A DNA stretch of 19,375 nt, taken from contig JBBQXJ010000088.1 of the NCBI GenBank assembly GCA_038209745.1, positions 1 to 19,375 of the forward strand. The letters run 5' to 3'. The DNA comes from Verrucomicrobiota bacterium. GTDB taxonomy: Bacteria; Verrucomicrobiota; Verrucomicrobiia; Limisphaerales; CANJSG01. Numbering within the stretch: the first letter of the stretch is position 1; every line of letters starts with the position of its first letter. The position numbers and the translations under genes were made by a program. The notes below the pieces were generated by a model. The model was not told the origin of the DNA. It was given only the letters and a program-made list of their open reading frames with translations, and did not search any database. Below are positions 2,230 through 19,312 of this stretch, piece after piece.

Positions 2230-3549
2230 CTAGAGTTCTTCCAGCGCCTTGTCGGCGTCTCCGAACTTCGGCAGGCGCACGTCCATCTTGTCCATCATCG
2301 AGAGGTAGAGCCGGCACATCTGGCGCTCGGGCTTGTCCTTGTAGTCGAGGACCCGGCCGCCCTTGATCCGGCCGCCGCCGCCGCCGAGCAGCACGACCGG
2401 CAGCTGCGACGCATCGTGGTTCCCGTTCAGCATGGAGGAACAATACAGCAGCATCGTGTTGTCGAGCAGGGTGCGCGGACCTTCCTGGATGCCGTCCAGC
2501 TTGCGCGCGATGTAGGCGACCTGTTCGAGGAAGAACCGGTTCACCTTCAGCCAATCGGCCGTGTCGCTGTGCGAGAGCAGGTGATGGATCATGTAGTCCA
2601 CGCCGAGATTCGGGAAACGCAGGGAGCTGTGGTCGTTGTTCAGCTTGAGCGTGGTGATCCGGGTGGTGTCGGTCTGGAAACCGAGCACCAGTATGTCGCA
2701 CATCAGGCGCATGTGCTCGGCGATGTCCTGCGGGATGCCATCGGCGGGGCGCGGGTGCTGGCTCACGGCGACCTTTGCGTCGAGCGTCGGCCGCCAGCCC
2801 TGCAGTTCGCCCTTCTTGCCGGCGTTCGCGATGCGCTGCTCCACGTCGCGCACGGACTCCAGATATTCGTCGAGCTTCTGCTGGTCGTTGGAACTGACCC
2901 GGCGGCGGAGGTCCTTCGCGTCGGTCAGGACGGCGTCGAGCACGCTTTGGTCGCCCTTCCTGGCCGAGTCCTTGAACAACCGGTCGAACGCGAGCGCGGG
3001 ATAGATCTCCAGCGGCGTCGGCGTGGTCGGCGAGTTCCACGAGATGTGCGAGCTGTAGAGCATCGAGTAGTTCTTGTGGACCGACGGGTTCGACTTCTCG
3101 CAACCGAGCACGAGGCTCGGAACCTTGGTCGAGTGGCCGTAGCGCTGTGCCAGCAACTGGTCGACGCTGGTGCCGGAACGGATCTCGCCGCCGGACGCCA
3201 GCGGTGCGCCGGAGAGCAGGTTGCCGGTCTGGGAACTGTGGATGTTTCCCTTCTGCGCCTCCTCGTTGTAGAGGCCGCGAACGAACAGCATCTTCTCCCG
3301 GAAATCACCGAGCGGCGCGAGCACCTGGCCGAGCTCCATCTGCTTGCCCTCGCCCTTGGCCCACCATTCCTTCGAGTGGAAGCCATTGCCCGAAAACAGC
3401 ACCGCGAGCCGCACCGGCGCTTCGCTGGCCGGCTTGACCCCGATGGGCGGCGTGTCGCCCCAGACGGTGAGCGATTCCATCCAAGGCAGCGCCATCGTGA
3501 CGCCGAGGCCGCGGAGAAAGGTGCGGCGGGAGAAGTGGTGGGTGTTCAT
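2230..3549 (-). CDS. DUF1552 domain protein with a Tat-like signal
   Basis: Start set at the ATG at 3549: MNTHHFSRRTFLRGLGVTMALPWMES. Also SVDQLLA, SLVLGCE, ISW, LDEYLESVRDVEQRI and TLLDNTMLLY..NH motifs. Lies directly downstream of a DUF1592 gene, the usual pairing. Confidence 0.9.
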   Translation of the reverse strand: MNTHHFSRRTFLRGLGVTMALPWMESLTVWGDTPPIGVKPASEAPVRLAVLFSGNGFHSKEWWAKGEGKQMELGQVLAPLGDFREKMLFVRGLYNEEAQKGNIHSSQTGNLLSGAPLASGGEIRSGTSVDQLLAQRYGHSTKVPSLVLGCEKSNPSVHKNYSMLYSSHISWNSPTTPTPLEIYPALAFDRLFKDSARKGDQSVLDAVLTDAKDLRRRVSSNDQQKLDEYLESVRDVEQRIANAGKKGELQGWRPTLDAKVAVSQHPRPADGIPQDIAEHMRLMCDILVLGFQTDTTRITTLKLNNDHSSLRFPNLGVDYMIHHLLSHSDTADWLKVNRFFLEQVAYIARKLDGIQEGPRTLLDNTMLLYCSSMLNGNHDASQLPVVLLGGGGGRIKGGRVLDYKDKPERQMCRLYLSMMDKMDVRLPKFGDADKALEEL

Positions 3550-3580
3550 GGTCGGTTGGGTTTGGACGGCGTGGACTTGG

Positions 3581-6500
3581 TCAGTCTTCGGAAACCATCG
3601 CCTTCCCGCGGATCTCGCGGAACTGGCGGCTGCGGACAATGGTCTCAAAGGCGGCCGTGATGCGGTAGTCGTGGGATTTGAGCGCGTCGCCCATTGCGGA
3701 AACCAAAGGACCGTCGGAGAGCATCACCGCGCGGCCGAGCGAGTAGCCGAGCAGCTTGCGGCAGAATTGCTTCAGCACCACGTCGCGGCGCTTCGTGAGC
3801 AGATAGCCGCGCAGGCCTTCGAGGCCCTCGAACTCCGATCCATCCATCGCCTTGGCGTGCGTGTCGATCGGTCGGCCGCCGAGATCCTGTTCGCGCCGGC
3901 GACCGATGGCGTCGAACGCTTCGAGGGAAAATCCGTAGGCGTCGATGCGGCGATGGCAGACGAAGCACTTGGGATCGGAGCTGTGTTTCTCGGTGAGCTG
4001 GCGGACGGTCAACGTCTCGGTCGCTTCGTCCTCGGGCAGGCGCGGGACGTCCTTCGGTGGTCGGGGCAGCTTGTCGCCGAGGAAGACTTCGGCCACCCAG
4101 TTGCCGCGCAGGATCGGGCTGGTGCGGGAGGCGCCGGACTGTTTCGCGAGGGTTGCGCCGAGACCGAGAACTCCACCGCGACCATACTGTTTGATCCCGT
4201 CCACGCGCCGCCACTCGGACCCGGTGACTCCGGGGATGCCGTAGTGCGCCGCCAGCGCATCGTTCAGAAAGGTGTGGTCCGTGTCGAAGAGCGTCAGGAC
4301 GGACGCGTCGCTCTGGAACAGGTCCGCGAAGAAGCGGATCGCCTCTTCATACATCGCGCCGCGCAGGCCGTTGAAGGTCGGAAAGGTTCTCTCGCTCTTC
4401 TCGTCCAGCGACGCGAAGTCGTGGATGTGCAGCCACGCGCATCCGAACTCGGTCGCGAGCCGGCGCACGCGCGGATCGCCAAGCATGCGCCGGGTCTGCG
4501 CGGCGAGCACATCCGGATCGCGGAGTCGGCCGGACGCGGCCATGGCGCGCAGTTCGTCGTCGGGCGCCGAGGACCAGAGGAAATAGCTCAGGCGCGTCGC
4601 GAGTTCCCAATCGTTTACCGGCCCCGGCTTGTCGCCCGGCTGTGGCTCCTCGGTGCGGTAGAGAAACGCGGGCGAGACCAGGGTCCGCGCAAGGGCGAGG
4701 CGGATGGCCTGGTCGTGGGGAATCTCCTCGTCGCGCAGTTTGCCATACAGGGCGCGCAGCTCGTCTTTTTCCGCATCGATGAGCGGTCGGCGATAGGCGC
4801 CTTCGGCAAATTTCAAAACGGCTTCGAGGTGCGCCGGTTGGGTCTCCACGAGCCGTTTCCTGAACTCCTCCGCATGGCGTTTGATCGGCTCGCGCAACGG
4901 TTCGAAGGCGCTCGGATCGGCGTCCTGCGTGGCGAACTGCCAGAGCTGCTCGAAGCCGTCGACCAGCTTGAGCGGATCCTGGCTGACGAAGTGCAGCTCG
5001 GCCCAGAGCCGGTCGATCTCGGCGGATTGCGCGGCGTCCAGCATGAGGCGTTTCAGCGGTTCGTCCTCGCGGTAGTAGAGGGTCAGCGTCACGACTTCGT
5101 CGACGGGGACGATCTTCGTGTAGCACAAGGCGGCGGGGAACAACTGGCGGAACTCGTCGAAAGCGGCCTCGATCCGTTTCCGTGCGGTGCCGCCCTTCGC
5201 CACGATGATCGGCGAATCCGACACGGCCGGACGTTCGCCGTCGGACCAGGTGCTCTTGTTGCCCTGTTCCTTCACGGTGCCGGCCGCGAGGCGCAGGGAG
5301 TTCGGCTTCGTCGTGAGCACCTGCATCTGCACGCTGCCCTCGGAGCCGGTCCCCTGGTGCAGGGTCGCGGTGGTGACCAGCTCATAGCCCTCGGCAAACT
5401 CAGCGGGCAAACGCACCTCGATGACCGTCGGTGCCTGGACGCAGAGGCTCTTGGCTGCGACCGCCGCGCCCTGCGGATGCCGGCCGAACAGGGCTGGGTC
5501 AAGACCCCAGCTGGGTGCGGTTGAGTCGACGGGATTCGGGTTTTGGCGCGGTTCAACTGGAAGAGCCGCGCTTCGGTCGTGGGCCACGAACGAAGCCAAG
5601 AGAGGGCCGGTCGGGGAAGCGAGCTGGCGATAGAGCACTGCGTCCGGCGATTCGTGCGCGAGGCCGGCGCCACCACCGATCAACAGCGTTTGCAACGCTT
5701 CGGCGATTTGCGCTTTCTCTGCGGCATTGTTGCTCGATTGCCAGCGCGAGAGCAGCGAGCCGGCGGGCAGCACCGATTGAGGGCCGGAACCCTCGTCCGG
5801 TTCGCTGTAGAAATGCCATACGTCCGGATGGCCCAGACGGTCCGCGTGCGGGTTGCCCGCGAGGATGTCCGGTGAAACGTCCTGCGCGAGGTCCCAGGAT
5901 TGGGCGCCATCGGTGAGGCGGAGATCGACGGCGGTGAGGTCGCACGAGTGGTTGCCGTCGCGGGGGCCGACGACCACGGAAACCACGTCGCCGGGCTGCA
6001 CCGCGAGCGGCTCGAACGGGCCGAACTTCACCTCCGTCGCGTCCTGGGCCGTGCCGGCGGCGAGACGTTGCCGGGTGTTGCCGCGCCGCACTTCCAAGGA
6101 CCACTCCACCCCGTTGCCGCACTCCGTGTGCGCGTGTTGTACGAGGCCTTCGACCCGAAGCAAGGCGGCCACCGGACTGCGCCACCCGACGGCGACGCGC
6201 AGCTTGGGCGAGGGATGCACCGCCACGCTGTGCGGCTTCATGTTGCCCGGCACGCGCACGGGCTGATCGGACGAATTGGCGATGACGCTGAGCGCGTCGG
6301 CCCCGACCCAACCCTTGATGAAGTCGTAGGTTTGCGCGCGCTCCATCCGCTCCGTCAGGTGGGAATCGATCCGGGTTTCACCGGCGCCAAGGCCGAGACA
6401 CGCGAGCCAACCTGCCAACACCGCCGGCTCCACCTCGTGCTTTTGCGCCTGCTCTGCAACGGCGTTGGTGCCGGACGAGCCGTTGACCTCCGCTGCGGCG

Positions 6501-7798
6501 GCCAGGCACTGGGCGGCGCTCGCGAAGACCTGTTTGCGGTTTGCGGTCAAGGCGAGGGCGGCCGCGCGCACGTCGCGCAATGGAAGCTCCGGTCGGCCGG
6601 GAGCGACGAGGCGCGGATTCTCCCAGATCGCGAAGTCGCCCGCATTGCCATCCCCCGCGTCCGAGGTCGCCAGATACAACGTCGTTTCGGCGCCTTCCTT
6701 CGGAGTCGGAATCTTCAGCCGGATTTCCCGTGCTTCGGCGATGGGAGTCACCGGCTCCTGCCAGGCTGTCGGGCCGTCGCGCTTGCCGATGTGGCCGACC
6801 TGGGTGAAGCGCCACAACGCGTGTTGCCACTGGCCGATGGCCGTTACCAGAGCCGCGCCGCCACCGGGCTTCGCGCTGCGCCATTGCGCGCGGATCGGAT
6901 CCAGGAGAACGGACGGGTTCGTGCCGTTGAGCGCGGTCCAGAGGGTGCCCAGATACTTTGCGTTCAAACCCCGGTCCCCCGCCACGACCGCGGGGGACTT
7001 GCGTCCGGTCTTGATCAGGTCGCGCTCCGTGATGGTCGCCTCCAGATACGGCTCCAGGGGCAGGAGGCCGCCGTCCTTGGTGTCGAACTTGATGCCCTGC
7101 AGATTGACCGCCGTGCCGCCGCCGTTCTCGGTGAAGCGGGCGTAGAAGGCGCGGATGGCCGCAAGGCGTTCCTCCGTCCAGTCGCGCGGCGAAATGCTGG
7201 GCGAAAAGCGGATTCCGTCGGGCAGCAGGACCGCGTGGGCCGCGGCGTCCTTGGCGGCGTCGAGATACTTGGTCACGAGCGAGGGCGACATCACCAGCGA
7301 GTTGCCGACGTTCATGAAGCCTTCGCCGGACGCTGAATCACCGGGGAATTCCCTCGCGGGATCGAGCGACGCGACGCCCGTCAGATCGCGGAGGGTGTAG
7401 GTGTATTCCGCGTTGTCCAGCCGGCGCAGCACGACCGGCCCCGGATCTCCGGCATGCGCCTGCGCGAAGGTGTCCAGGACCGAATTCGCCCAGGTCGCCA
7501 GAGTGTCGAACTGTGCGGCGCTGGGCTGGGGCTTTTCGGCCGGCGGCATCTCACCGAGGAAAAGCTGGTCGACCACGGCCTGCCAGACCTTCGGCGCGGC
7601 AGAGACGTCGGACATCGAAGCGAACCGTTCCAGATCGAGGTCGCCCTTGTGCTTCTCGGTCGAGTGGCAGCCGAGGCAATACTCCTTCATCACTGGACGG
7701 ATCTCTTTGACGAAATCCGCCGCCGTTCCGGCAGAGGCCAGGACAAGGACCGAAACGATGAACGTAGGAAACGCCCGAAGTTGGGTTCGAGTGATCAT
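3581..7798 (-). CDS. Large DUF1592-family protein (planctomycete cytochrome c domain plus DUF1587/1595/1592/1588/1585) with a long central insertion
   Basis: Start set at the ATG at 7798 (MITRTQLRAF..., signal peptide). YCLGCH heme motif, LRRLDNAEYTYTLRDL, WELATRLSYFLWSSAPD, RTSPILRGNWV, CFVCHRRID and KLLGYSLGR motifs. Confidence 0.9.
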   Translation of the reverse strand: MITRTQLRAFPTFIVSVLVLASAGTAADFVKEIRPVMKEYCLGCHSTEKHKGDLDLERFASMSDVSAAPKVWQAVVDQLFLGEMPPAEKPQPSAAQFDTLATWANSVLDTFAQAHAGDPGPVVLRRLDNAEYTYTLRDLTGVASLDPAREFPGDSASGEGFMNVGNSLVMSPSLVTKYLDAAKDAAAHAVLLPDGIRFSPSISPRDWTEERLAAIRAFYARFTENGGGTAVNLQGIKFDTKDGGLLPLEPYLEATITERDLIKTGRKSPAVVAGDRGLNAKYLGTLWTALNGTNPSVLLDPIRAQWRSAKPGGGAALVTAIGQWQHALWRFTQVGHIGKRDGPTAWQEPVTPIAEAREIRLKIPTPKEGAETTLYLATSDAGDGNAGDFAIWENPRLVAPGRPELPLRDVRAAALALTANRKQVFASAAQCLAAAAEVNGSSGTNAVAEQAQKHEVEPAVLAGWLACLGLGAGETRIDSHLTERMERAQTYDFIKGWVGADALSVIANSSDQPVRVPGNMKPHSVAVHPSPKLRVAVGWRSPVAALLRVEGLVQHAHTECGNGVEWSLEVRRGNTRQRLAAGTAQDATEVKFGPFEPLAVQPGDVVSVVVGPRDGNHSCDLTAVDLRLTDGAQSWDLAQDVSPDILAGNPHADRLGHPDVWHFYSEPDEGSGPQSVLPAGSLLSRWQSSNNAAEKAQIAEALQTLLIGGGAGLAHESPDAVLYRQLASPTGPLLASFVAHDRSAALPVEPRQNPNPVDSTAPSWGLDPALFGRHPQGAAVAAKSLCVQAPTVIEVRLPAEFAEGYELVTTATLHQGTGSEGSVQMQVLTTKPNSLRLAAGTVKEQGNKSTWSDGERPAVSDSPIIVAKGGTARKRIEAAFDEFRQLFPAALCYTKIVPVDEVVTLTLYYREDEPLKRLMLDAAQSAEIDRLWAELHFVSQDPLKLVDGFEQLWQFATQDADPSAFEPLREPIKRHAEEFRKRLVETQPAHLEAVLKFAEGAYRRPLIDAEKDELRALYGKLRDEEIPHDQAIRLALARTLVSPAFLYRTEEPQPGDKPGPVNDWELATRLSYFLWSSAPDDELRAMAASGRLRDPDVLAAQTRRMLGDPRVRRLATEFGCAWLHIHDFASLDEKSERTFPTFNGLRGAMYEEAIRFFADLFQSDASVLTLFDTDHTFLNDALAAHYGIPGVTGSEWRRVDGIKQYGRGGVLGLGATLAKQSGASRTSPILRGNWVAEVFLGDKLPRPPKDVPRLPEDEATETLTVRQLTEKHSSDPKCFVCHRRIDAYGFSLEAFDAIGRRREQDLGGRPIDTHAKAMDGSEFEGLEGLRGYLLTKRRDVVLKQFCRKLLGYSLGRAVMLSDGPLVSAMGDALKSHDYRITAAFETIVRSRQFREIRGKAMVSED

Positions 7799-8217
7799 GC
7801 GGAGGTCAGTTGCCCGATCCACGCAGACCCGGAATGAAGGTGGGAAAGGTCGATGGCGCAGGGAATCCGAGAATTCGGCCGCGCGGCGGATTCCATTTTC
7901 AATGAGACGATCCGATGCATGAAAACTGGGGGCGAGACGGGAGGCTAAGGAGCGCTGGCCGGGTGGCCAAGAGCCATCTTGTCGGGGCCGAGGGGAAAAG
8001 GTGGGGTGTCGCCGCTCTGTTTGCGGTTGCCGGGTCGGGTCAGAATGTCGAAGGGATCGGAAAGAACCGCGCGAGCCGGGCCGCGTTCGCCCATGCGCAC
8101 GAGGTGCCGGGCCGGGGAACGATTGGAGAATTGAATCGACCGCGCGGGCAACGCGGCTCAAACCAAGGTCAGGATCTGAAGCCCGCCGGATTGGACCGGC
8201 CAAACCTCGACACTCAA

Positions 8218-9266: not shown

Positions 9267-11063
9267 ATGCCCTTCATCTCTCGCCTTGGTCGGCTCGCGT
9301 TCGGGTTTCTCGTGTGCGGGTCGGTCGGGTTCTCGGCGCACGCCCAAAACGACTACAAGCTCGCTCCCGAATCGACCGAACGCGCTCCCGGCGTTCCGAA
9401 GGGCCGCGTTGAAAAGTTCCAGTTTACCGAGTCCAAGGTCTTCGCCGACACCGCGCGGGACTGTTGGATCTACATCCCGGCGCAATACGACGGCTCCAAG
9501 CCCGCCGCGTTGATGGTCTTCCAGGACGGCGGCGGCTATGTCGGTGAAACCGGCGGCCAGCGCGCGCCGATCGTCTTCGACAACCTGATCGCCAAGGGCG
9601 AGATGCCCGTGACCATCGCCGTCTTCATCAATCCCGGCACCCGCGTCGCCACCGACTCGTCGGCCGAAGGCGCCCAGAACCGCAGCAATCGCAGCTTCGA
9701 ATACGACTCGCTCGGCGACGCCTACTCCAAGTTTCTGATCAACGAGTTCCTCCCCTTCATCACCCGGAAGTTCGGCGTGAAGCTCACCGACGACCCTGAA
9801 CTGCGCGCCATCGGCGGCATGAGCAGCGGCGCCATCTGCGCCTTCACCGTCGCCTGGGAACGGCCCGACCAGTTCCGCAAGGTGCTCTCGCAGATCGGCA
9901 GCTTCACCAACATCCGCGGCGGCGACGTCTATCCATTCTGGATCCGCAAGACCGAGCGGAAACCCCTGCGCGTGTTCCTGCAGGACGGCTCGAACGACTT
10001 GAACAACCTCCACGGCAACTGGCCGCTGGCGAACCAGTCGATGGCCAGCGCCCTCGGCTTCATGGGCTACGACTACCAGTTCGTCCTCGGCACCGGCAGC
10101 CACAGCGGGAACCACGGCGGCGCGATCCTGCCCGACACCCTCCGTTGGCTCTGGCGGCCCACGCTCGCCGAACTGCCCAAACCGCTGACCAAGGACAATC
10201 TCGGCGGCGACGAAGCGCTCTCCAAGGTGTTGGCCGAGGGTGGCAAACCGGGAGACTGGGAACTGATCGGCGAAGGCTACGGGTTCACCGATGGAGCGTG
10301 TGGCGATGCGGAAGGCAACTTCTACTTCAGCGACCTCGGTAAATCCGTGGTCTACCGCGTCGCGGCCAACGGGACCAAGCCCATGGCGTGGCTCGAAGGC
10401 GGGCCCAAGATCAGCGGCCTGAAGTTCGGGCCCGACGGCAAGCTCTACGCCGCGACCCAGGGAGGCGGCGCCGCCGACGCCAAGCAGATCGTCGTCATTG
10501 ATCCCGCGACCAAAGCCATCGAGACCGTCGCCGTCCAAGTGCAGCCCAACGACCTCATCGTCTCCAAGGCCGGCTGGATCTACTTCACCGACACCGCCGC
10601 CGGCCAGGTCATCGGTCTGCCCATCAGCGCGCGGAACCTGCCCCGGCCCCACGCCGTCGCCGGCGGAATCAAGCAGCCCAACGGCATCGGCCTCACGCCC
10701 GACCAGCGCCAGCTCATCGTCAGCGAATACGGCGGGAGCAACGCATGGACTTTCCTCATCGCGGACGACGGTTCGCTGCGGGGCGGAGAGAAGAACATGG
10801 AACTGCGCACGCCGGTCGGGAAGAACGACAGCGGCGGCGACGGCCTGACCACCGACGCGGCCAGCCGCTACTGGATCACGAGCAACCTCGGCATCCAGAT
10901 GTTCGACGCCAACGGCCGGATGGGCGGCATCGTCTCGCGCCCTCAGGAAAAGGGCACGGTGAGCTGCGCCTTCGCCGGTCCCGGCCGGAGCTACCTCTAC
11001 GTCTGCAGCAGCGACAAGGTCTATCGCCGCAAGACGCTGACCGCAGGCGCTGTCATTCCTTGA
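9267..11063 (+). CDS. Secreted fusion of an enterochelin-esterase-like alpha/beta hydrolase and an SMP-30/gluconolactonase domain
   Basis: Signal peptide; MVFQDG, NRSFEYD and the nucleophile elbow GGMSSGAI; C-terminal GFTDG..FYFSD, PND, PNGIGL and GDGLTTD propeller motifs. Confidence 0.85.
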   Translation: MPFISRLGRLAFGFLVCGSVGFSAHAQNDYKLAPESTERAPGVPKGRVEKFQFTESKVFADTARDCWIYIPAQYDGSKPAALMVFQDGGGYVGETGGQRAPIVFDNLIAKGEMPVTIAVFINPGTRVATDSSAEGAQNRSNRSFEYDSLGDAYSKFLINEFLPFITRKFGVKLTDDPELRAIGGMSSGAICAFTVAWERPDQFRKVLSQIGSFTNIRGGDVYPFWIRKTERKPLRVFLQDGSNDLNNLHGNWPLANQSMASALGFMGYDYQFVLGTGSHSGNHGGAILPDTLRWLWRPTLAELPKPLTKDNLGGDEALSKVLAEGGKPGDWELIGEGYGFTDGACGDAEGNFYFSDLGKSVVYRVAANGTKPMAWLEGGPKISGLKFGPDGKLYAATQGGGAADAKQIVVIDPATKAIETVAVQVQPNDLIVSKAGWIYFTDTAAGQVIGLPISARNLPRPHAVAGGIKQPNGIGLTPDQRQLIVSEYGGSNAWTFLIADDGSLRGGEKNMELRTPVGKNDSGGDGLTTDAASRYWITSNLGIQMFDANGRMGGIVSRPQEKGTVSCAFAGPGRSYLYVCSSDKVYRRKTLTAGAVIP

Positions 11064-11160
11064 ACGACCCGTCTTGTGGGTCCATTTTTGCTTCGAGGTG
11101 CCCAAATGGGGGCCGCCCATTGCGCGCACGCCAGAACAAACGTAAGCCTTGCCCCGTTGT

Positions 11161-11565
11161 ATGACTCTGCCCGAACGGAACCGCCTCGACGCGTTGCGCG
11201 CCGCCCTCGTCCGCCTCCACAAGTCGCTGCTCGATTCGGAGCGGATCGGCTACGAACAGGCGTTCGGCACCATCCCCTCGGCGCAGGATTTTCTGCGGCT
11301 GCTGCTCCAGGATCCGTGGTTCGCGTGGCTGCAACCGATCTCGCTCCTGATCGTGAAGATGGACGAAGCGCTCGACGCAAAAGACGGTGGACCCACGGTC
11401 AACTTCAGCGAGTGGATCACCCAGACCCGAAACCTGCTTGTGGCCTCGGAGATCGGGAAGGGCTTTCCGAAGCACTATGACGACGCCCTGCAACGCGATC
11501 CGAACGTGGTCATGGAGCACGCCGGCGTGATGATCCTGCTGCGGGACCCGGCACCGCCGGCTTAG
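11161..11565 (+). CDS. Hypothetical protein, probably helical
   Basis: ATG at 11161; GC3-rich codons; protein-like sequence LVRLHKSLLDSER...DPWFAWLQPISLLIV. Function not recognisable. Confidence 0.75.
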   Translation: MTLPERNRLDALRAALVRLHKSLLDSERIGYEQAFGTIPSAQDFLRLLLQDPWFAWLQPISLLIVKMDEALDAKDGGPTVNFSEWITQTRNLLVASEIGKGFPKHYDDALQRDPNVVMEHAGVMILLRDPAPPA

Positions 11566-11580
11566 GGCGGAACGATGCAG

Positions 11581-11707
11581 TGGGGATCGGGGAGCGCGCC
11601 CGCCCCGGGCGCAGTGGACCGCGCCCTCGCGGTCCATCGGAGGCGCAGGGAAACGATTCACCGCCCGGTGTGTCCGGGCGCGGCAGCCGGGGCGGCTGCG
11701 ATCCCCA
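11581..11707. repeat. REP-like composite palindromic element
   Basis: Outer inverted repeat TGGGGATCG (11581-11589)/CGATCCCCA (11699-11707) encloses four perfect hairpins: 11596-11612, 11615-11636, 11662-11680 and 11683-11699. Confidence 0.6.
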
Positions 11708-11812
11708 TCCATTTCCACTGCCTCGTTCCGGCTGAGGGCGTCTCCGAAGGTCCCGGCTCAATTGGCGGATTTTCAGGCGGCGTCCGTGGTGAAAGCACGC
11801 GAACGAATCCCC

Positions 11813-11845
11813 GGCCGTTGGGCAGATGCAACGGCCACATTTTTT
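11813..11845 (+). terminator. Possible intrinsic terminator
   Basis: 8-bp stem GGCCGTTG (11813-11820)/CAACGGCC (11829-11836), followed by ACA and a T6 run. Confidence 0.35.
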
Positions 11846-11913
11846 CGATGGCGCACGGTTGCGCGTCGAATCGCCGGAAACTTTTCAGAATACGGTCAGA
11901 AATCTCCGCCTGA

Positions 11914-11931
11914 CGTCATGGGATGCCGATG
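11914..11931 (-). mobile_element. Possible isolated IS terminal inverted repeat related to the IS end at 19238
   Basis: Reverse complement CATCGGCATCCCATGACG matches CATCGGCGTCCGAAGGCG (19238-19255) at 14 of 18 positions, including the first 7. Confidence 0.35.
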
Positions 11932-12130
11932 GGTGCAAAGGTCTCGCGGTCTAGGAGCAGGCTCAGGTCGCGGGCGGAACTGCGGGCCAGCGTGCGGTTT
12001 TTCTCGGAAGGAACCGCCTATGGAAAGACAGACGAGGAAAGGCGGCGGTTTTCATGGCAGCATTCGGAGCGCCGGCCAGTCCCGGCGGCCTCTCAACCTA
12101 AGAAATAAACGAAGCGGACGTCGATCTTGC

Positions 12131-12154
12131 GGTGCCTGCCAAATACAAGGCACC
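12131..12154. promoter_or_regulatory. Inverted repeat just upstream of dndC, possible operator
   Basis: GGTGCCT-N10-AGGCACC ends 12 nt before the dndC ATG. Confidence 0.3.
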
Positions 12155-12166
12155 TTTCGGTGACCG

Positions 12167-13336
12167 ATGTCAGATCCCGTTGTCCAAGACGCGCCCCACG
12201 CCCTCGACGAGCTTCATGCCAAGCTGAGGCTTATCCGGCGCGAACTCCGCGACGAATACCTCCAACCCCACGCGCATCCGTGGATCATCGGCTTCTCCGG
12301 CGGCAAGGACTCCACCCTCCTCCTCCATTTCGTTCTGGAGGCCATTCGCAGCGTGGCCCCGGACGAGCGGAAGCGCGCCGTCCATGTCGTCAGCAATAAC
12401 ACGCTCGTCGAGTCGCCCATCTTCCAGGACTTCGTGGACCGCTTGCTGGAGCGGCTGGAGGACAGCCTGGAAGGGTTGAACGTCCCTGTAAGCGTCGTCC
12501 GCACCAAACCGCTTCCCGAGGAGAGCTTCTGGGTGAACCTCCTGGGCAAGGGCTATCCCGCCCCCAACCGCACCTTCCGCTGGTGCACCGACCGGATGAA
12601 GATCCGGCCCACCTCCCGCCTTATCCGCAGCCTGGTGGACGCCAATGGCGAGGCCATCCTCCTGCTCGGCGTGCGGCGGGCCGAATCGGCCACCCGGGCC
12701 AACGCCATCTCCCGCCACGAGGACGCCGACAAGGGCCGACTCTCCCCCCACTCCGACCACAAGGGCGTCTCCATCTTCTCCCCTATCAAGGACCTGACCA
12801 ACGAGGACGTCTGGCTCACCCTGCTCAACAGCCGACCGCCGTGGGGCGGCAGCTACCGCGAGCTGGTCACCCTCTACAAGAACGCCGCCGGCGGCGAATG
12901 CCCCTTCGTCATGACCGTGGGCGATGCCCCCTCCTGCGGCTCCTCCTCCGCCCGCTTCGGCTGTTGGACCTGCACCGTCGTCGAGAAGGACAACTCCCTC
13001 GCCGCGCTGATCGAGGCCGGCCACGACCATCTGGAGCCGTTGGCCGACTTCCGCGACCGGCTCAAGCAGGTCAGCCAGTCGCCTCAATACCGCAAGACCA
13101 TCCGCCGCAATGGCCAGCACGGCATGGGGCCGCTCACCCCGGAAGCCCGGCGGATGCTGTTGGACGAGCTGCTCGCCCTGCGGGCGGAAGCCGACTTTCC
13201 GCTCATCTCCGACCATGAAGTCCGGCTTATTCGGGAGCAGTGGGAGAAGGACAAGACACAGGATTTGGTCCGGGCCTTGGCGCTGGAGGAGAATCTGGAA
13301 CCCCGTCTGCTGATTCTCAATGGAGCCGTCTGCTGA
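12167..13336 (+). CDS. dndC: DNA phosphorothioation protein DndC (PAPS-reductase-like, Fe-S)
   Basis: PP-loop IGFSGGKDS; NTLVESP, SFWVNLLGKGYPAP, FRWCTDRMKIRP, LGVRRAES, GECP and SCG..RFGCWTCTVV motifs; upstream of dndD/dndE-like genes. Confidence 0.95.
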   Translation: MSDPVVQDAPHALDELHAKLRLIRRELRDEYLQPHAHPWIIGFSGGKDSTLLLHFVLEAIRSVAPDERKRAVHVVSNNTLVESPIFQDFVDRLLERLEDSLEGLNVPVSVVRTKPLPEESFWVNLLGKGYPAPNRTFRWCTDRMKIRPTSRLIRSLVDANGEAILLLGVRRAESATRANAISRHEDADKGRLSPHSDHKGVSIFSPIKDLTNEDVWLTLLNSRPPWGGSYRELVTLYKNAAGGECPFVMTVGDAPSCGSSSARFGCWTCTVVEKDNSLAALIEAGHDHLEPLADFRDRLKQVSQSPQYRKTIRRNGQHGMGPLTPEARRMLLDELLALRAEADFPLISDHEVRLIREQWEKDKTQDLVRALALEENLEPRLLILNGAVC

Positions 13337-14219
13337 CAAGTGGTTATCCAAGCTGGGCCGCTTGCGAATCGACCGGAAAGATAACCCAGCTCCGCATAAG
13401 CCGCTCCTTCTCTTGACCGTCATCGAGATGGTCGAAAAGGGCTTCTTGAAAGAACCCGTTCTTCCATTTTCCGGAGAGCTGACTTTTCGCTTTATGACGC
13501 TGTGGCCGGTGGTCGCCGGGCGGCGGAGTCAGAGACCTGAGGTTTGGCTTCCTTTTTATCATCTCCGAACCTCCGGCGTCTGGGTTCCTCTCGACGCGTC
13601 TGGAAGCCCAACGGAAGAGCGCCGCCGAGTCGCTTCGGCGCGAATTGCCCTTGAGTTCTTCGATTGCCTGCTGGAACCCGAGTTCCGGGAAAAGCTTCGG
13701 GTCCTGCTGATAGATCGCTACTTCACCGATTCTGCGGAACGGGCTGCGTTAGCGGAATTCGCCGGTGTTACGCTGGAGCAGTCTAGCGAGCTGAATGATC
13801 GGGTTGATCGATATGAAGTCGCCCTTCGGATTGTCCGTGAGGTTCGCTTCCGGCTCGGGGTGGTTCCTGCCTTCGACTACACCTGCGCGCTCACGGGATA
13901 CCGGCTCGTCACCGCCGCTGCGGGAAGCATCGTTGACGCGGCGCATATCCACCAGTTCGCCGCCAGTCAGAACAACGATCTGCGGAACGGAATCGCGCTG
14001 TCCAAGAATGCCCATTGGACTTTTGACCAAGGTCTCTGGTCTCTGACGGACGACTATCGGGTGATCTTGGCGAAGGATCGTTTCAACGAGTCAGGCCCAC
14101 AGAGCCTTTTGTTATCCAGTTTCGAGGGACGACGCATCCATCTGCCCAAGCGTAAAGACCAATGGCCCGACGTTCGCCACCTTGAGTGGCATCGAAGGAA
14201 TAAGTTTGGGCGAATCTGA
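13320..14219 (+). CDS. HNH endonuclease with an N-terminal sulfur-binding-domain (SBD)-like region; putative restriction endonuclease
   Basis: N-terminal PAPHKPLLLL and LPFYHL motifs; C-terminal YTCALTG, VDAAHI, NGIALSKNAHWTFDQG and LEWHR motifs. Codon usage is less GC3-biased than in dndC and dndD. Confidence 0.85.
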   Translation: MEPSADKWLSKLGRLRIDRKDNPAPHKPLLLLTVIEMVEKGFLKEPVLPFSGELTFRFMTLWPVVAGRRSQRPEVWLPFYHLRTSGVWVPLDASGSPTEERRRVASARIALEFFDCLLEPEFREKLRVLLIDRYFTDSAERAALAEFAGVTLEQSSELNDRVDRYEVALRIVREVRFRLGVVPAFDYTCALTGYRLVTAAAGSIVDAAHIHQFAASQNNDLRNGIALSKNAHWTFDQGLWSLTDDYRVILAKDRFNESGPQSLLLSSFEGRRIHLPKRKDQWPDVRHLEWHRRNKFGRI

Positions 14220-15994
14220 CCTTCACCCCCGCTCTGGAGAACCATCGGGACGAGAAGAAATTCCGGATCATCCGGCGGTGGTTCTTCACCGGTTCGAATC
14301 AGCCCAAACAGGGCGACGCCTTCGAGGAGCTGGAGGTCCACGTCGGCGACAACATCATCCGCAGCGTCAACCCGCATGAACGGATCGAGCGGGAGCTGTT
14401 CCCGGCCCATGTGGCCCCGGCGTTCTTCTTCGATGGCGAGCAGGCGCAGTCCCTGATCGAGGGTTCCGGCGAGGCCGGCATCCGCAAGGCGTTGGACACG
14501 ATGTTCGGCGCGTCGGTGCTGGAGGAATTGCAGGACACTCTCGGTGGCTATCTGTCTCGCACTCATGCTCTCTTGGGCGGAAAGACGAAAGCCTCGGCAC
14601 GCCAGGAGCAGTTGGACGCCAAGGTGGCAGCCCAAACCGAGTTGAACCGGAAGATTGGCAAAGCCGAGAAACAGTTGGTCGAACTCCACACGGAGAAGGA
14701 GAACACCGACCGGGAACGCAACCAACTGCGCGATGAACTGGCTCGGGCCGGTGGTGTCGGCGGCGACGCCACCCGCATCAAACAGGAGTTCCAGGAAGCC
14801 GAGAGCCGGAAAGAAGCCGCCGAGAAAGCCGTGACTCGCTTGGCGACCGAGATGGGGCTGGTCCTGGCTGTCAGCCGGCTCGATCCGCTGGTTCGCCGCC
14901 AGTTGAACCGGGAACGGTTGCGCGAGGACTACGAGAACCTCCGCCAGGGCACGCTCGACAAGCGGGAACGCGTGCTGATGGAAGCCATGCCCGAGCCGCC
15001 GGAGAAAGATCCCTTGCTCGGCAACATCGCCCCCGCCGTCCGGGAAAAGGTGAAGCAGCGCATCCTCAAGGCGCTCCAGGCCATCTACGAGCCGCCCGAC
15101 CCGGACATCGCGGACAACTTCCTGCTGGGCCATGTGCGCGGCGCGCGGCGCAAAGAGGTGCTGACCCGCTTGGACGAGACCCGCACGTTCGCCTACGACC
15201 AGGTGCGTTCCGTGGCCAAGGCTCTGCGCGACGCCCGCGACGCCTACGAGGACGCCAAGGCGCGTTTCGCGAAGCTGGGCAACCAGTCCACCGAGACCAA
15301 GGATTTGGCCGAACGCATCCGCAAGCTCGACGAACGCGCGGACGACCTGGTCCGACGCATCACCACGGTGGAAAACGAGATCAAGTCGGGCAAGGCCGAT
15401 TGCCACAATCTCTCCGTGGAGATCGGCAATCTCCGGGAAGAGCTGGCCAAGCTGGAACCGGAGCAACGGCGCATCGCCGTCGCCGACCGGGCCTCACGGG
15501 CGGTCGCCGCGATCCTCGAACGGCTCAAGCCCGTCACGACCCAGCGTCTGGAAGAGCACGTCACCAAACATTTCCGCGCCATCGCCGACCCGCGTTTCCG
15601 CCACGGCCAGATCGTGTTCGCCGAAAGCGGCGAGCCGCACCTGAACCTGGGCGGGGAGAACAAGGCGCTGCTCAGCTCCATGAGCGGCTTCGAGCGGCGT
15701 TCCTTCGGCATCGCCTTCTCGCTGGCTCTGGCCGAAATCACCCGCCGCCGCGTCCCGCTCATCATCGACACCCCGCTGGGCAACGCCGATTCGCAGTATC
15801 GCCCCCGCACGCTGGACGCGCTCCGCAAGTTCGACTGCGACCAGGTGATCATCCTCACCCACGACCGCGAGGTGACGGCGGACCTGCTGGAACACATCCA
15901 GGGCCACGTCTGCCAGAAGTTCCTCGTCGAGTTCGACCCGGAGCAGCAGCGCTCCGTGGTCCATCGCAACCGCTTTTTCTTCGAAGACCGATGA
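14216..15994 (+). pseudogene. dndD: DndD (SMC/ABC-like ATPase), 5'-truncated, without start codon or Walker A
   Basis: The frame is open from an in-frame TAA at 14201-14203 and reads LTFTPALEN...FRIIRRWFFTG...APAFFFDGE, then coiled coil, MSGFER signature, IIDTPLG Walker B and QVIILTHDRE. No GxNGxGKT motif and no ATG, GTG or TTG before GTG 14411. Confidence 0.85.
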
Positions 15995-17559
15995 ACACCG
16001 AATTCAAGGAGGCCGTTTTCAAGGGGCAGTTCAAGCCCACGCAGCCGGCCCACGAACTGGAGGACAAGCTGAAGGCCAAGTTCGGCCTGACGCACCGTTA
16101 CGCCGCGGCCCGGCTGATGATCGGCCGCTCCTTGGCCGAGCCGGAGCCGCCGCCCGCGCTGCCGGCGGCGGCGAGCTTCGGTAAGTCGCTGCCTGGCGAA
16201 ATGCTCTTCGGCGACGACCTGGACCTGTGGCTCTGCGCGTTGATCCTCGACGCCAACCTTCCGGTCGGGGCTTCGGTCGAACATCTGCGTCTCAACGTGG
16301 AAGCCCACTGGGCGCGTGGAGCCCGGCTGGTGCTGAACGATCTGGAAGAGAGCGAACAAGACGCGGCCAAGCTGATCATGCGCCTAGCGGGGCAGTTGCC
16401 GGAGGACGGCCGAGAGGCGGTGCAGCACGCGCCGTCTGGCGCCGCGAAGTCCCATGCCGCTGCGGTCCAGGTGAAGGTCGGCTCCGTCAGCACGACCTTC
16501 GACACGAAGCCGGGCTCAAAATCGGAACCGGTGGACTTCTGCCTGGACGGGCCCGGCAACTCGCCGCACCTCGCCCTGATGGGTCGCACCCGCAGCGGAA
16601 AAACCACTACTGGCATCCAAATGGCCCGGAGCATCGTCGAGCAGGCCCGCATTCCCATGCTGCTGATCGACCCGCAGGGAACCTTCATCACCGACGGCAA
16701 ACTCAACGACAAGCTGCCGCCGGGGTTCGGCGACATCCAACCCATCGAGGTCGGATTGAAGCCCATTCCCCTCGACTTCCTGCCCAACGCCAATGTCGGC
16801 CACGTCGCCATCCAGAACGCGGCCATGACCCTGCGCGACAGCATCTGTCTTTGTTGCAAGTCACCCGGCGACCTGATGCGTTCGCGCCTCATCCAGTCCA
16901 TCGAGCAGGTCATCACCACGGGCGACAGCCGCAGTCTCCAGTCGATCAAGGACACCTATGAACAGCGGTTGGAGATCGACGGCGTGGAGATCGACAGCAT
17001 CGCCGCGCGGCTTGACGAACTGACCCGTTTCCAGTGCTTCGCCCCCGAGATGTCCGCCACGGATTTCTTTTCCCGATCCTGGGTCGTCAGCCTGATGCAC
17101 ATCCAGTCCGAGGAGTTGAAGCGCCTGGTCATGCTGCTGCTGCTCGACGCCACCGCGATGCACTTTCTGGCCCAGCCCGAGGCGCCGCTGAAGGACGGCT
17201 TCCGGCAGATGCGGCAGATGGTGGTCATCGACGAGGCGCGGAAGATCCTTCAGGAACGCAAGTCCGAGTCCGTCGTTCAGCTCATCACCCGCAGCGCGGC
17301 CAAGGGCGTGTCCGTGATGCTGCTCTCGCAGGACCCGAGCGACTTCGACGGGCACGACTACGACTTCACCACGCAGCTCGGTGCGGTGGTCTCCTTCTGT
17401 TGCAACCAGACCCAGCGCGGCCTGCGGTCGCTCACCGGCGTCTATGGCCGCAAGCTGTTGGCTGAGGAATTCAGCGACTCCCACCTCGCCCCCGGCATCG
17501 CCTTCGCCAAGCTGCCGAACCGCGAGGCGATGCGCATCCGGTGCTGGAAGGCGGGGTGA
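15991..17559 (+). CDS. dndE: DndE domain fused to a HerA/FtsK-like P-loop ATPase (DndEi-like)
   Basis: ATG 15991 overlaps the dndD stop (ATGA). N-terminus resembles DndE (KFGL..RYAAARLMIGRSL, LFGDD, EAHWARG). C-terminus has GRTRSGKTT (Walker A), LLIDPQG, VVIDEA (Walker B) and KGVSVMLLSQ. Confidence 0.8.
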   Translation: MNTEFKEAVFKGQFKPTQPAHELEDKLKAKFGLTHRYAAARLMIGRSLAEPEPPPALPAAASFGKSLPGEMLFGDDLDLWLCALILDANLPVGASVEHLRLNVEAHWARGARLVLNDLEESEQDAAKLIMRLAGQLPEDGREAVQHAPSGAAKSHAAAVQVKVGSVSTTFDTKPGSKSEPVDFCLDGPGNSPHLALMGRTRSGKTTTGIQMARSIVEQARIPMLLIDPQGTFITDGKLNDKLPPGFGDIQPIEVGLKPIPLDFLPNANVGHVAIQNAAMTLRDSICLCCKSPGDLMRSRLIQSIEQVITTGDSRSLQSIKDTYEQRLEIDGVEIDSIAARLDELTRFQCFAPEMSATDFFSRSWVVSLMHIQSEELKRLVMLLLLDATAMHFLAQPEAPLKDGFRQMRQMVVIDEARKILQERKSESVVQLITRSAAKGVSVMLLSQDPSDFDGHDYDFTTQLGAVVSFCCNQTQRGLRSLTGVYGRKLLAEEFSDSHLAPGIAFAKLPNREAMRIRCWKAG

Positions 17560-17600: not shown

Positions 17601-18038
17601 ATGAAGATCCCCGGAAAATTGGCCGATCCGATGATGAAGATCCTTCGGATGTTTTTGTATCTGGTTTTGATCGTGTTGATCGGAGGCGTGGGCTGTTGGA
17701 TTTCGCTGGGGCAACATTGGGTAAATCCATCAGCAACAAGTTTTGACGGATTCCTTGGGAATCTCGGGACTTTCGCCGTTTCAGTCGCAGTCATGGCATT
17801 TGCAGATTTTCTGCTGCTTCCGGCGAGTGTTTACAACTCCACCAAAGCCCTTTGCCTCTATGTTCTGATGGCACTGGCGGTAGGCTCGGGAATCTTGGTT
17901 GTTGTTTGGCATCCCGAGTGGATTTGGTGGTTGGGAACCGCCAGTTTGGGTCTGGCAGTTTTCGAGTGGATCGTTGTCAATTTGGGGAACCAAAATTTTG
18001 ACGAGCCAGGATCAATCCTTGGAGGAGATGTCGAATGA
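17601..18038 (+). CDS. Hypothetical membrane protein with about 4 TM helices; true start may be 17561 via a frameshift
   Basis: Four hydrophobic stretches; visibly lower GC than upstream genes; stop overlaps the next ATG (ATGA at 18035-18038). Confidence 0.75.
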   Translation: MKIPGKLADPMMKILRMFLYLVLIVLIGGVGCWISLGQHWVNPSATSFDGFLGNLGTFAVSVAVMAFADFLLLPASVYNSTKALCLYVLMALAVGSGILVVVWHPEWIWWLGTASLGLAVFEWIVVNLGNQNFDEPGSILGGDVE

Positions 18039-19312
18039 GCCCGTTTCCATTAAAGCTGCAAGCCGTGAAAGTATCCCAGCCAATGGGCGACTTTTATGCG
18101 GTCGCAATCCCCGCAAAAATCCTACGTCCCATAGTATTTCTTGATCCGACTCGTATTGAGTCCGTTGACCGAAGCTCGTTTCTCTACCGACTGCTTGGGA
18201 ACCAGCGAGACGCTTCCACTTCTCGCGCGCGAGAGATTGCCAAATACATCAACACCGTGGAGTCGGCCTTCCCCAACAGCATTATCCTGGCCGCCAACTA
18301 TGTTGAGTATGGAAGTTTGCAGGAGGACCCTGCTCGTAGGTGGAAGGTAGGAAAGGATTCGAGCGGGCTTTTCCTCACGATTCCAACTGCTGAGCGCATG
18401 GCCAGTGTGGTCGATGGGCAACATCGGCTTCTGGGATTCGACTACTGCAAACCTGAACGAAGGGACATGGAGCTTTTGTGCGCGGTTTACATGGATTTGC
18501 CGCAGGCCTACCAAGCTTACCTTTTTGCGACCATCAACATCAATCAGAGGAAGGTGAACAAGAGCCTCGCCTACGAGCAGTTCGGCTACAATTTGGATGA
18601 CGAAAAGCCAGAGGGTTGGGCACCAGACAAGCTGGCGGTATTCTTCACGAGGAAGCTGAACCTAAATCCAGAGTCACCGTTGCATCAGCATATCAAGATT
18701 GCACCGTTGGAGGCTGACTTGGTCTTTCAGAAATCTTCGGACTCCGACTGGGTTGTTTCTACCGCTTGCATCGTTGAAGGGATTGTTTCGCTGGTTTCAG
18801 CGCGCCCGAAGATTGACCGGGATCTTCTTCATTCCAAGCAGCCGAATGAACGGAACCGAAGCGGGTTGCCTCAAGACGGGGCTCCGTTTCGTGATCTTTT
18901 TCGGCAGTGCCAAGACGAAGTGTTGTGGGGCCAAATTTTGGGATTCTTTTCCGTCGTCAAACAGACATTCTGGGCGAAAGCCTCCGAAAAATCCTTCATC
19001 AAGAAGACGATTGGCGTTCAGGCGTTGTTTGATGTCTTCAGAGTCCTGGGTCTCAGATTCGAACTCGATAAGTTGTCACAGGAGGTCGGTCGTGTTGCTG
19101 GGGTAGCCTCAGCCATTGATTTCGGAGGAGACTTTTTCCAAGCCTCAGGCAAAGGACGAGTCAGGGTCAAAAACGTGATCTTGAGAGCGGCTGGATTGAT
19201 AGGAGATGCCGACCTGCCAGCACCAGACCGTGTGGGGCATCGGCGTCCGAAGGCGGGTGTCATGATGCGGCGTAGAGGGAGGCGAGGCGTGGCACGGCGA
19301 GGGCTTCCGTGA
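18035..19312 (+). CDS. DGQHR-domain (DndB-like) phosphorothioation-associated protein; last 24 aa derived from IS sequence
   Basis: NQR, FPNSIILAAN, VVDGQHRL and FATININQRKV motifs; low-GC codon usage up to about 19237. Confidence 0.9.
   Translation: MSPFPLKLQAVKVSQPMGDFYAVAIPAKILRPIVFLDPTRIESVDRSSFLYRLLGNQRDASTSRAREIAKYINTVESAFPNSIILAANYVEYGSLQEDPARRWKVGKDSSGLFLTIPTAERMASVVDGQHRLLGFDYCKPERRDMELLCAVYMDLPQAYQAYLFATININQRKVNKSLAYEQFGYNLDDEKPEGWAPDKLAVFFTRKLNLNPESPLHQHIKIAPLEADLVFQKSSDSDWVVSTACIVEGIVSLVSARPKIDRDLLHSKQPNERNRSGLPQDGAPFRDLFRQCQDEVLWGQILGFFSVVKQTFWAKASEKSFIKKTIGVQALFDVFRVLGLRFELDKLSQEVGRVAGVASAIDFGGDFFQASGKGRVRVKNVILRAAGLIGDADLPAPDRVGHRRPKAGVMMRRRGRRGVARRGLP

Follow-up and report, generated by a model that had tools for sequence, protein, structure and literature searches.

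Phosphorothioate (PT) writers and PT-dependent nucleases are usually treated either as antagonists that reside in separate cells or as neighbours with only a loose link. The dnd cluster of a Verrucomicrobiota bacterium raises the question of what becomes of the writer when such a nuclease settles inside its operon. The cluster lies on contig JBBQXJ010000088.1 of assembly GCA_038209745.1, and the window analysed here is this whole 19,375-base contig (C88) of a 140-contig assembly (G000) that is 92% complete. A gene for an HNH nuclease with a sulfur-binding domain (SBD) stands between dndC and dndD, where it physically takes the place of the ATP-binding head of DndD, the SMC/Rad50-like ABC ATPase of the DndCDE complex. 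We interpret the locus, with modest confidence, as a remodelled operon in which the canonical writer has been disabled, a PT-dependent nuclease has become resident, and the headless DndD is kept together with a DndE-HerA fusion for some other role.

The junction between the nuclease gene and dndD

The first-pass annotation, made from the sequence alone, had read the stop codon of the nuclease gene as lying inside mid-gene dndD codons and the dndD frame as lacking a Walker A motif and any canonical start before 14411, and every part of that description was confirmed. The HNH open reading frame (ORF; 13320-14219) terminates at TGA 14217-14219, within dndD-homologous codons, while the dndD frame has a stop at TAA 14201-14203 and stays open from 14204 to 15994. 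The earliest ATG, GTG or TTG in this frame is GTG 14411, and the FFFDGE motif, placed about 70 codons past the junction, occupies residues 74-79. TIGR03185 matches only the rear of DndD (positions 92-650/650, 158.4 bits, below the cut-off of 245.85), with the match starting at position 88-92 across searches, and in the PADLOC DndD/PbeC models the match begins at position ~96-108. The closest DndD relatives in a large protein collection are ~690 aa long, share 72% identity over 99% of the query, and begin MYLSKLHL...GAMNGHGKTS; aligned with them, the window protein lacks columns 1-94, including the Walker A motif GAMNGHGKTS, close to the roughly 100 missing residues estimated earlier. Compared with canonical DndD, the window protein is thus homologous from about profile position 90 to the end, and it retains the FFFDGEQ region, the coiled coils, the signature motif, and the Walker B/H-loop region. 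The C-terminal lobe is present as LSSMSGFERR...PLIIDTPLGNADS...ILTHDREV, and in the alignment with two related loci discussed below (L028, which also carries the nuclease, and L032, which does not) dndD homology starts at ...CTGACCTTCACC.

The features of the operon, all on the plus strand, are as follows.

12167-13336, plus strand: dndC, 389 aa, with a PP-loop / 4Fe-4S sulfurtransferase core (TIGR03183, 337.5 bits)
13320-14219, plus strand: SBD-HNH nuclease gene, 299 aa, with the SBD at about residues 1-145 and the HNH motif at about residues 189-242
14201-14219, plus strand: HNH/dndD junction, with TAA 14201-14203 and with TGA 14217-14219 inside the dndD codons CTG ACC
14204-15994, plus strand: headless dndD open frame, 596 codons, first canonical start GTG 14411
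15991-17559, plus strand: dndE-herA fusion, 522 aa (Pfam DndE at 28.3 bits, cut-off 25, plus DUF87/HerA)
17601-18038, plus strand: ORF for a small hydrophobic (membrane) protein of 145 aa, conserved in position in related loci
18035-19312, plus strand: DGQHR protein, 425 aa, DndB-like and of the ParB superfamily (TIGR04172, TIGR03187, Pfam DndB)

A misassembly had been named as an alternative. The junction is spanned by a 3433-nt contig of run X2 (13102-14700, 18 substitutions, no indel) and by a 1247-nt contig of run X3 (13481-14700, no indel), both at about 99% identity; since these contigs come from two other runs, which belong to different studies, the junction is not an assembly artefact. 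A third contig, 240 nt long and from run X1, which may be the source sample, also spans it and matches 14013-14252 with no difference.

A Walker A lobe encoded elsewhere, on a plasmid or in an unassembled part of the genome, would mean that the ATPase had been split rather than lost. The high conservation of the C-terminal ABC motifs is in keeping with this, as is an assembly that is 92% complete and in 140 contigs. The check for a separate N-terminal fragment of DndD that the first-pass annotation had proposed turned up none in the assembly: the best DndD profile hits (E 0.002) are generic P-loops, and a tblastn search with the first 100 residues of five relatives gave a best E of 0.21; no second DndD or second DndC was found in it either. 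A further genome with the same gene order (G057) shows the beheaded copy only, and the deletion endpoints differ between loci, unlike those of a designed split. We consider a head in trans very improbable.

Gene callers give dndD as a 527-aa protein from the internal GTG. Translation of the headless DndD must start at or near the junction, where the sole near-cognate start candidate is CTG 14216-14218, which forms CTGA with the HNH stop. Recoding that would fuse HNH and DndD was rejected: the window would need a -1 shift and has no slippery site, and in L028 the two genes share a frame but are separated by three stops. A promoter and terminator scan of 11400-14700 revealed neither a terminator nor a promoter-like site between HNH and the dndD remnant, and the sole convincing hairpin in the scan lies at 11813-11836, upstream of dndC.

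The nuclease and the sequence it displaced

The nuclease had been identified as an SBD-HNH enzyme from sequence alone, and this identification stands. The protein covers positions 3-283/284 of NF045808 at 113.2 bits (the family cut-off of 180 is missed), Pfam HNH_2 matches residues 189-242 (E 1e-9), and the N-terminus matches PDB 8H0L, SBDHga of Hahella ganghwensis (phmmer E 8.7e-9). The sulfur cavity of SBDHga consists of H25, K26, L75, P76, and H79 (PMC10602919, available text), to which H26, K27, L77, P78, and H81 of the window protein align. Among 22 sequences H26, P78, and H81 do not vary, K27 and L77 are at least 90% conserved, and the HNH residues D206, H209, N218, N223, and H232 are likewise invariant. 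According to the same text, the two-domain form makes up more than 80% of SBD homologues, eight have been characterised as PT-dependent enzymes, and the characterised two-domain SBD-HNH enzymes cut PT-DNA and do not spare it (PMC10602919). We predict from these residues that the window nuclease is PT-dependent. It has the architecture of the SprMcrA/EcoWI type, with full model length and matching cavity and catalytic residues; it differs in its score under the family cut-off (113 vs 180), in that its activity is predicted, and in its position inside a dnd operon rather than standalone.

The composition of the HNH gene sets it apart from its neighbours. The G+C content at third codon positions (GC3) is 0.645 in HNH, compared with 0.88 in dndC, 0.86 in the dndD remnant, and 0.88 in dndE-herA; in L028 the corresponding value is 0.585, compared with 0.81, 0.79, and 0.78. 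In both loci the steps are sharp at the borders of the HNH gene. Because its GC3 is far below that of the flanking genes, the HNH gene looks inserted and foreign. As a clock to tell a single acquisition from separate ones GC3 was set aside, since partial amelioration from a low-GC donor fits both. A predicted complex of DndC with HNH scored 0.00 against a mark of 0.32 and counts neither way.

What stood at the dndC/dndD boundary before can be read from L032, a metagenome locus (JADMIO011200116.1) that has no HNH gene. Its order is dndC (370 aa), a 67-aa ORF, a full-headed dndD, and dndE-herA, followed by a 212-aa ORF, a DndB-like gene, and a cysteine desulfurase on the opposite strand. The window has no counterpart of the 67-codon ORF, so that the loss at the junction, which had been described as that of the dndD head, is correct for the head and has to be extended to this ORF. 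The 67-aa ORF weakly matches DndC profile positions 408-456/505 (E 0.035) and the C-terminal columns of long DndCs (E 0.042), and it is probably a detached C-terminal, DndD-docking piece of DndC. In Escherichia coli B7A, DndC docks on the head and coiled-coil-1 of DndD through its residues 433-482 and its C-terminal helix, and DndE is bound by coiled-coil-2 of DndD, as described in the available text of PMC12193691 from AlphaFold3 models with pull-downs. Given the resemblance of the ORF to the DndC C-terminus that docks DndD in B7A, the window has lost the DndD P-loop and probably also the DndC-DndD docking piece, while the part of DndD predicted to bind DndE is kept. In L032 itself the 67-aa ORF (7482-7712) lies in frame with dndC, behind the dndC stop codon, and dndD is frameshifted near 9314, so that the locus may be decaying or hold sequencing errors; L031, from the same assembly, gives identical match statistics, including the split in DndD.

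On the other side of the insertion, dndC is a good family member: it passes the TIGR03183 cut-off (337.5 vs 290.4 bits, profile positions 7-366/447), carries the PP-loop SGGKDS and a Cys cluster, and in PADLOC fits DndC better than SspD (E 1.5e-110 vs 6.5e-11). Family scans of the window ORFs showed no SspB or SspC homologues. Homology of dndC to L028 and L032 stops at ...LVRAL, and the last ~18 codons form a tail without homology, which extends into the start of HNH. A C-terminal loss of ~80-130 residues from DndC, suggested by profile matches ending at 366/447 and 377/505, was rejected: dozens of close relatives are 365-385 aa long, some of them with an intact DndD on the same contig.

The sister locus and selection on the headless dndD

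The gene order of the window recurs in G057:C60 and in the near-identical metagenome locus L028, which extends to a DGQHR gene and then a cysteine desulfurase. In L028 dndD is beheaded at codon 61, 16 bases past the HNH stop, and the remnant has no canonical start. In a maximum-likelihood tree with intact 690-aa proteins, the headless DndDs of the window and L028 group together as a clade (support 100/99; stem 0.13, end branches 0.22 and 0.10; most intact DndDs 0.05-0.09). The last three HNH codons and the stop of the window derive from sequence homologous to dndD codons ~92-95, and an HNH stop inside dndD codons is what a later deletion would be expected to leave. The simplest history is one HNH insertion and, in the window lineage, a later loss of ~135 bases, which took away the end of HNH and another 33 dndD codons.

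A remodelled operon would have arisen from an ancestral HerA-type Dnd operon with dndC, a small ORF, dndD, dndE-herA, a small membrane protein, and a DGQHR gene of DndB-like type; in relatives dndA lies close by. A foreign SBD-HNH gene would have been inserted at the dndC/dndD boundary, and this insertion and the second, ~135-nt deletion in the window lineage would together have removed the 67-codon ORF and the first ~94 dndD codons including Walker A. Without Walker A and the DndC-DndD docking elements, the canonical DndC-D-E writer would no longer phosphorothioate DNA, and its loss would let a PT-dependent type IV nuclease stay in the operon and cut incoming PT-modified DNA. The headless DndD, with its coiled coil for binding DndE, and DndE-HerA would be retained for a task other than writing, most likely that of binding or translocating DNA in aid of restriction.

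Headless dndD, dndC, and dndE-herA are under purifying selection. Between the window and L028, non-synonymous (dN) and synonymous (dS) divergence are 0.166 and 0.84 for DndC (76% identity), 0.161 and 1.10 for the headless DndD (dN/dS 0.146), and 0.131 and 1.13 for DndE-HerA (80% identity); for HNH, dN is 0.161 with dS saturated. NG86 dS was saturated for several pairs, and ratios for saturated pairs are omitted. For the three dnd genes dN/dS is 0.12-0.20, with no stops and in-frame indels only, which in the headless dndD are of 3, 1 and 1 codons, and the 68 codons upstream of GTG 14411 give 0.145. In the dndD remnant identity drops from 0.83/0.88 at the first and second codon positions to 0.55 at the third, and across the three genes it is 0.55-0.57 at third positions vs 0.83-0.90 at positions 1 and 2. 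The dN ratio of DndD to DndE-HerA is similar on three branches (1.28 window, 1.24 L028, 1.47 L032), which argues against a relaxation specific to DndD. The best-kept part of the headless DndD is its C-terminal ABC motifs (signature, Walker B, H-loop region), at 87-92% identity. A strain that is ~1% diverged and shares the junction has three synonymous changes and one non-synonymous change in dndD 14204-14700, all three synonymous ones upstream of GTG 14411, and its protein (P0005) has 4 internal differences over the 527 residues from that GTG. The evidence favours a headless DndD that is translated and constrained, although the post-junction counts are small and the larger figures may include time before the beheading.

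One may postulate an alternative scenario of plain recent pseudogenisation, in which an HNH gene landed by dndD, lineage-specific deletions followed, and the operon is decaying with its constraint inherited. Varying breakpoints speak for it: codon 61 in L028, 94 in the window, and at or before codon 142 in a third beheaded DndD (P0016, 549 aa), with DndD down to its C-terminal ~134 or 125 residues in two further loci (L088, L099). So do the grouping of P0016 with intact DndD and not with the window, the acidobacterial loci described below in which HNH stands beside broken dndC, and a dndD remnant without a canonical start. Against it, the window and L028 form a supported clade with a shared gene order and an HNH dN equal to that of the flanks, which fits one old event. 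About 590 codons have stayed free of stops and frameshifts at 25% nucleotide divergence, where 0 of 2000 neutral replicates simulated at the observed divergence were stop-free (mean 11.8 stops); there is no DndD-specific rate increase; and since the split from the same-junction strain synonymous changes outnumber non-synonymous ones by 3 to 1. HNH proteins at 68-86% identity also form about 20 clusters, which indicates that the configuration has persisted and diversified. Pseudogenisation therefore seems to us distinctly unlikely. P0016 is probably encoded on one 20,344-nt contig with an HNH protein (P0259), as inferred from equal contig sizes only, and the pair P0125/P0246 would on the same basis share a 14,943-nt contig.

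The first-pass annotation had suggested that the island was turned from a PT writer into a PT-restricting locus. The foreign nuclease and the lost head agree with this proposal, whereas the purifying selection on the remaining dnd genes shows that the locus is not the mere wreck of a writer.

The rest of the operon is consistent with a HerA-type Dnd locus. The dndE-herA ATG at 15991 overlaps the dndD stop (ATGA). The 145-aa hydrophobic protein has counterparts at the same position in L029 (63% by tblastn) and L028 (29%), and the DGQHR protein scores 414.5 bits with TIGR04172 (cut-off 450) and 155 bits with TIGR03187, above 58.85. The tail (17601-19312) looks like an exchangeable module: its GC3 is 0.55 (membrane protein) and 0.60 (DGQHR) vs 0.86-0.88 in the preceding dnd genes, and the DGQHR protein is 40% identical to its L028 counterpart, with neighbouring genes at 72-80%. 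The contig ends 63 bases past the DGQHR gene; in both L028 and L032 a cysteine desulfurase lies just beyond the counterpart of that gene, and cysteine desulfurase (DndA/IscS) homologues of the window's assembly are on other contigs (best 55% identity, C9). Six same-genus genomes held neither a window-type DndD nor a window-type HNH, and the cluster is thus accessory (absent from 6/6). Upstream, a 138-aa ORF (11149-11565, plus strand) lies between an esterase/SGL gene and the dnd cluster, with the terminator-like hairpin 11813-11836 downstream of it. At 2230-8203 on the minus strand the window encodes a DUF1552 (HXXSHH) protein and a 1540-aa PSD/PSCyt multi-domain protein, unrelated to the dnd finding; such multi-domain proteins are typical of Planctomycetota and Verrucomicrobiota.

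DndC-HNH pairs in other genomes and the fate of the writer

The DNA around HNH relatives was taken from three sets: a genome-contig set, a phylum sample, and an order sample. In the genome-contig set a DndC-like gene adjoins HNH at 6 of 11 loci, and DndD was found at none. The phylum sample has HNH matches (E <=1e-10) in 34 of 401 genomes, and the usual setting there is standalone: dndC lies beside HNH in 1/18 flanks examined, and the other 17 have no dnd gene within ~8 kb. The order sample has matches (E <=1e-40) in 21 of 401 genomes, and DndC adjoins HNH in 7 of 19 flanks, with a weak eighth left uncounted.

The pairs differ in what remains of DndD. An intact dndC-D-E-B followed by SBD-HNH occurs at L095, the sole intact DndD in cis among the DndC-HNH loci fetched. 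L057 has a DndD cut by the contig end, and L017, in the genome-contig set, reads DndC (445 aa), HNH, DndE-HerA. Of the seven pairs in the order sample, besides L095, one has an N-terminal part of DndD (L089), two have a C-terminal part (L088, L099), and at three, L086, L087, and L100, no DndD was found. Two genomes with a DndC-HNH pair, G572 (97% complete) and G699 (93% complete), have neither DndD nor DndE anywhere. The DndCs of HNH pairs share 70-87% mutual identity across two phyla, and DndC of L086 and L087 differ by dN 0.093 and dS 0.62. In total, DndC-HNH adjacency recurs in two phyla and in three lineages of DndC, accompanied by a DndD that is absent, fragmentary or beheaded.

Some of these loci merit description in their own right. 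At L088 a 134-codon frame (3852-4253, G674:C310) between HNH and DndE-HerA holds the C-terminal ABC lobe only, with the LSEGQ signature and Walker B, and overlaps the HNH 3′ end by 49 bases, a junction of the same style as in the window. At L089 (7282-10804, G651:C398) DndC is followed by a Walker A-bearing DndD that ends at 441 aa and then by SBD-HNH, which mirrors the truncation in the window. Three Acidobacteriota contigs from metagenome-assembled genomes (L020, L021, L024), which belong to the genome-contig set, carry a full-length or split HNH beside a frameshifted or fragmentary dndC; these remnants neighbour a transposase in L020 and a PLD-family nuclease in L021.

The survey bears on the proposal that gain of the nuclease and loss of the head are coupled, and supports it in part: DndC-HNH occurs with truncated or absent dndD in many loci, and none of the 5 genomes that encode intact-headed relatives of the window DndD (39-61% identity) has a full-length NF045808 match. 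Within dndC-HNH loci dndD is mostly beheaded, fragmentary or absent, with L095 as the counter-example. The broader premise, that SBD-HNH enzymes and active dnd clusters are generally incompatible, fails in places. In G641:C14 (78965-84778) an SBD-HNH at 260.8 bits, above the NF045808 cut-off, lies between an intact dndD-dndE and a second DndD-like gene, L095 is a further such pairing, and wHTH(SBD)+SAD+HNH genes have been described in the Dnd loci of 698 taxa and proposed as the restriction partner of the writer (PMC10853773, available text). In G641:C14 the dndD scores 635 bits, and SBD-HNH and the second DndD-like gene are on the strand opposite to dndD-dndE; G641 also holds a separate DndC-HNH pair on C20.

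These cases also support an explanation in which the writer still works, with SBD-HNH as its cognate restriction partner, the DndE-fused HerA supplying energy, and the headless DndD serving as a coiled-coil scaffold; the SBD would then read PT as 'self' or target a PT context that the host itself never writes. Every dnd gene that remains, dndC among them, is intact and evolves under purifying selection, a cysteine desulfurase lies beside the L028 cluster and several are encoded in the window's assembly, canonical SBD-HNH genes adjoin intact dnd genes in G641:C14 and L095, and HNH nucleases of Dnd loci are a proposed restriction component (PMC10853773). The Walker A motif, however, is strictly conserved in intact relatives, which indicates that the normal HerA-type system depends on the ATPase of DndD, and the probable DndC-DndD docking ORF is lost as well. 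The modification module is moreover described as non-functional without its ABC ATPase (PMC10853773), and the known two-domain SBD-HNH enzymes cut PT-DNA (PMC10602919). We regard a working writer as rather unlikely.

Returning to the remodelled operon, several points weigh against it and call for caution. Loss of the writer is not needed for coexistence, given that G641:C14, L095, and the taxa of PMC10853773 combine SBD-HNH with dnd genes; the association counts include non-independent kin, and 4 of the 5 intact-headed genomes are from one genus. The HNH score is under the NF045808 cut-off, and its GC3 is low in both lineages despite dS >1, so that separate recent acquisitions could be at work. 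The breakpoints differ (codon 61 vs 94), and if the beheadings were independent and recent, the dN/dS values would reflect time before the event and the post-event evidence would come down to 4 substitutions. Strong conservation of the ABC motifs is odd for an ATPase that does not bind ATP, and fits a very recent beheading or a head in trans. Finally, the absence of ATG, GTG or TTG before 14411 leaves translation of the conserved N-terminal remnant unexplained, and L028 likewise has none in dndD before GTG 3284 (L016 coordinates).

A more tentative possibility, which we rate as doubtful, is that DndC and SBD-HNH form an autonomous, horizontally moving two-gene module that enters Dnd operons at the dndC/dndD boundary, destroys the ATPase head of DndD and so turns a PT writer into a restriction machine that senses PT, or that HNH nicking and DndC make up a minimal, DndD-independent writer, comparable with SspB/SspD. 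An intact, selected DndC with HNH in genomes without any DndD or DndE suggests such a module, and the headless DndD with DndE-HerA may then be the DNA-handling arm of the restriction machine. In SspABCD-type PT systems a nickase, SspB, works with the DndC-like SspD. The likeness to SspABCD is by analogy only: in G572 and G699 a DndC-like enzyme stands beside a DNA-cutting protein without a DndD-type ATPase, and there is no sequence relationship beyond the PAPS-reductase fold.

Among known systems the window is closest to the Dnd systems with HerA/FtsK-fused DndE (clade 3 of PMC10853773, where the DndE-HerA fusion is described), sharing with them dndC, a DndD-type gene, DndE-HerA, and a DndB-like gene. 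Set beside the modification module of that variant, it has DndC and DndE-HerA and no Walker A-bearing DndD in the assembly. As in the wHTH(SBD)+SAD+HNH loci, an SBD-bearing HNH lies in the locus, and an SBD nuclease in a Dnd locus is therefore already known (PMC10853773); unlike in those loci, the window HNH has no SAD/SRA domain, lies between dndC and dndD rather than downstream of the modification genes, and replaces the Walker A head of DndD and the small ORF. A literature search returned no nuclease between dndC and dndD that replaces the ATPase head, no recurrent DndC-HNH pair with eroded DndD, and no beheaded DndD or its conservation, with the limit that the supplementary neighbourhoods of PMC10853773 may contain such cases.

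The locus carries a warning for annotation: pipelines would score it as a complete dndCDE writer. Together with its relatives it provides a natural series for asking whether the gain of a nuclease that reads PT favours, by selection, the loss of PT writing, and what function is left to a DndD without Walker A in company with DndE-HerA. If the headless DndD is functional, its scaffold or DNA-handling role would be separable from its ATPase role, which would bear on how the DndCDE complex works.

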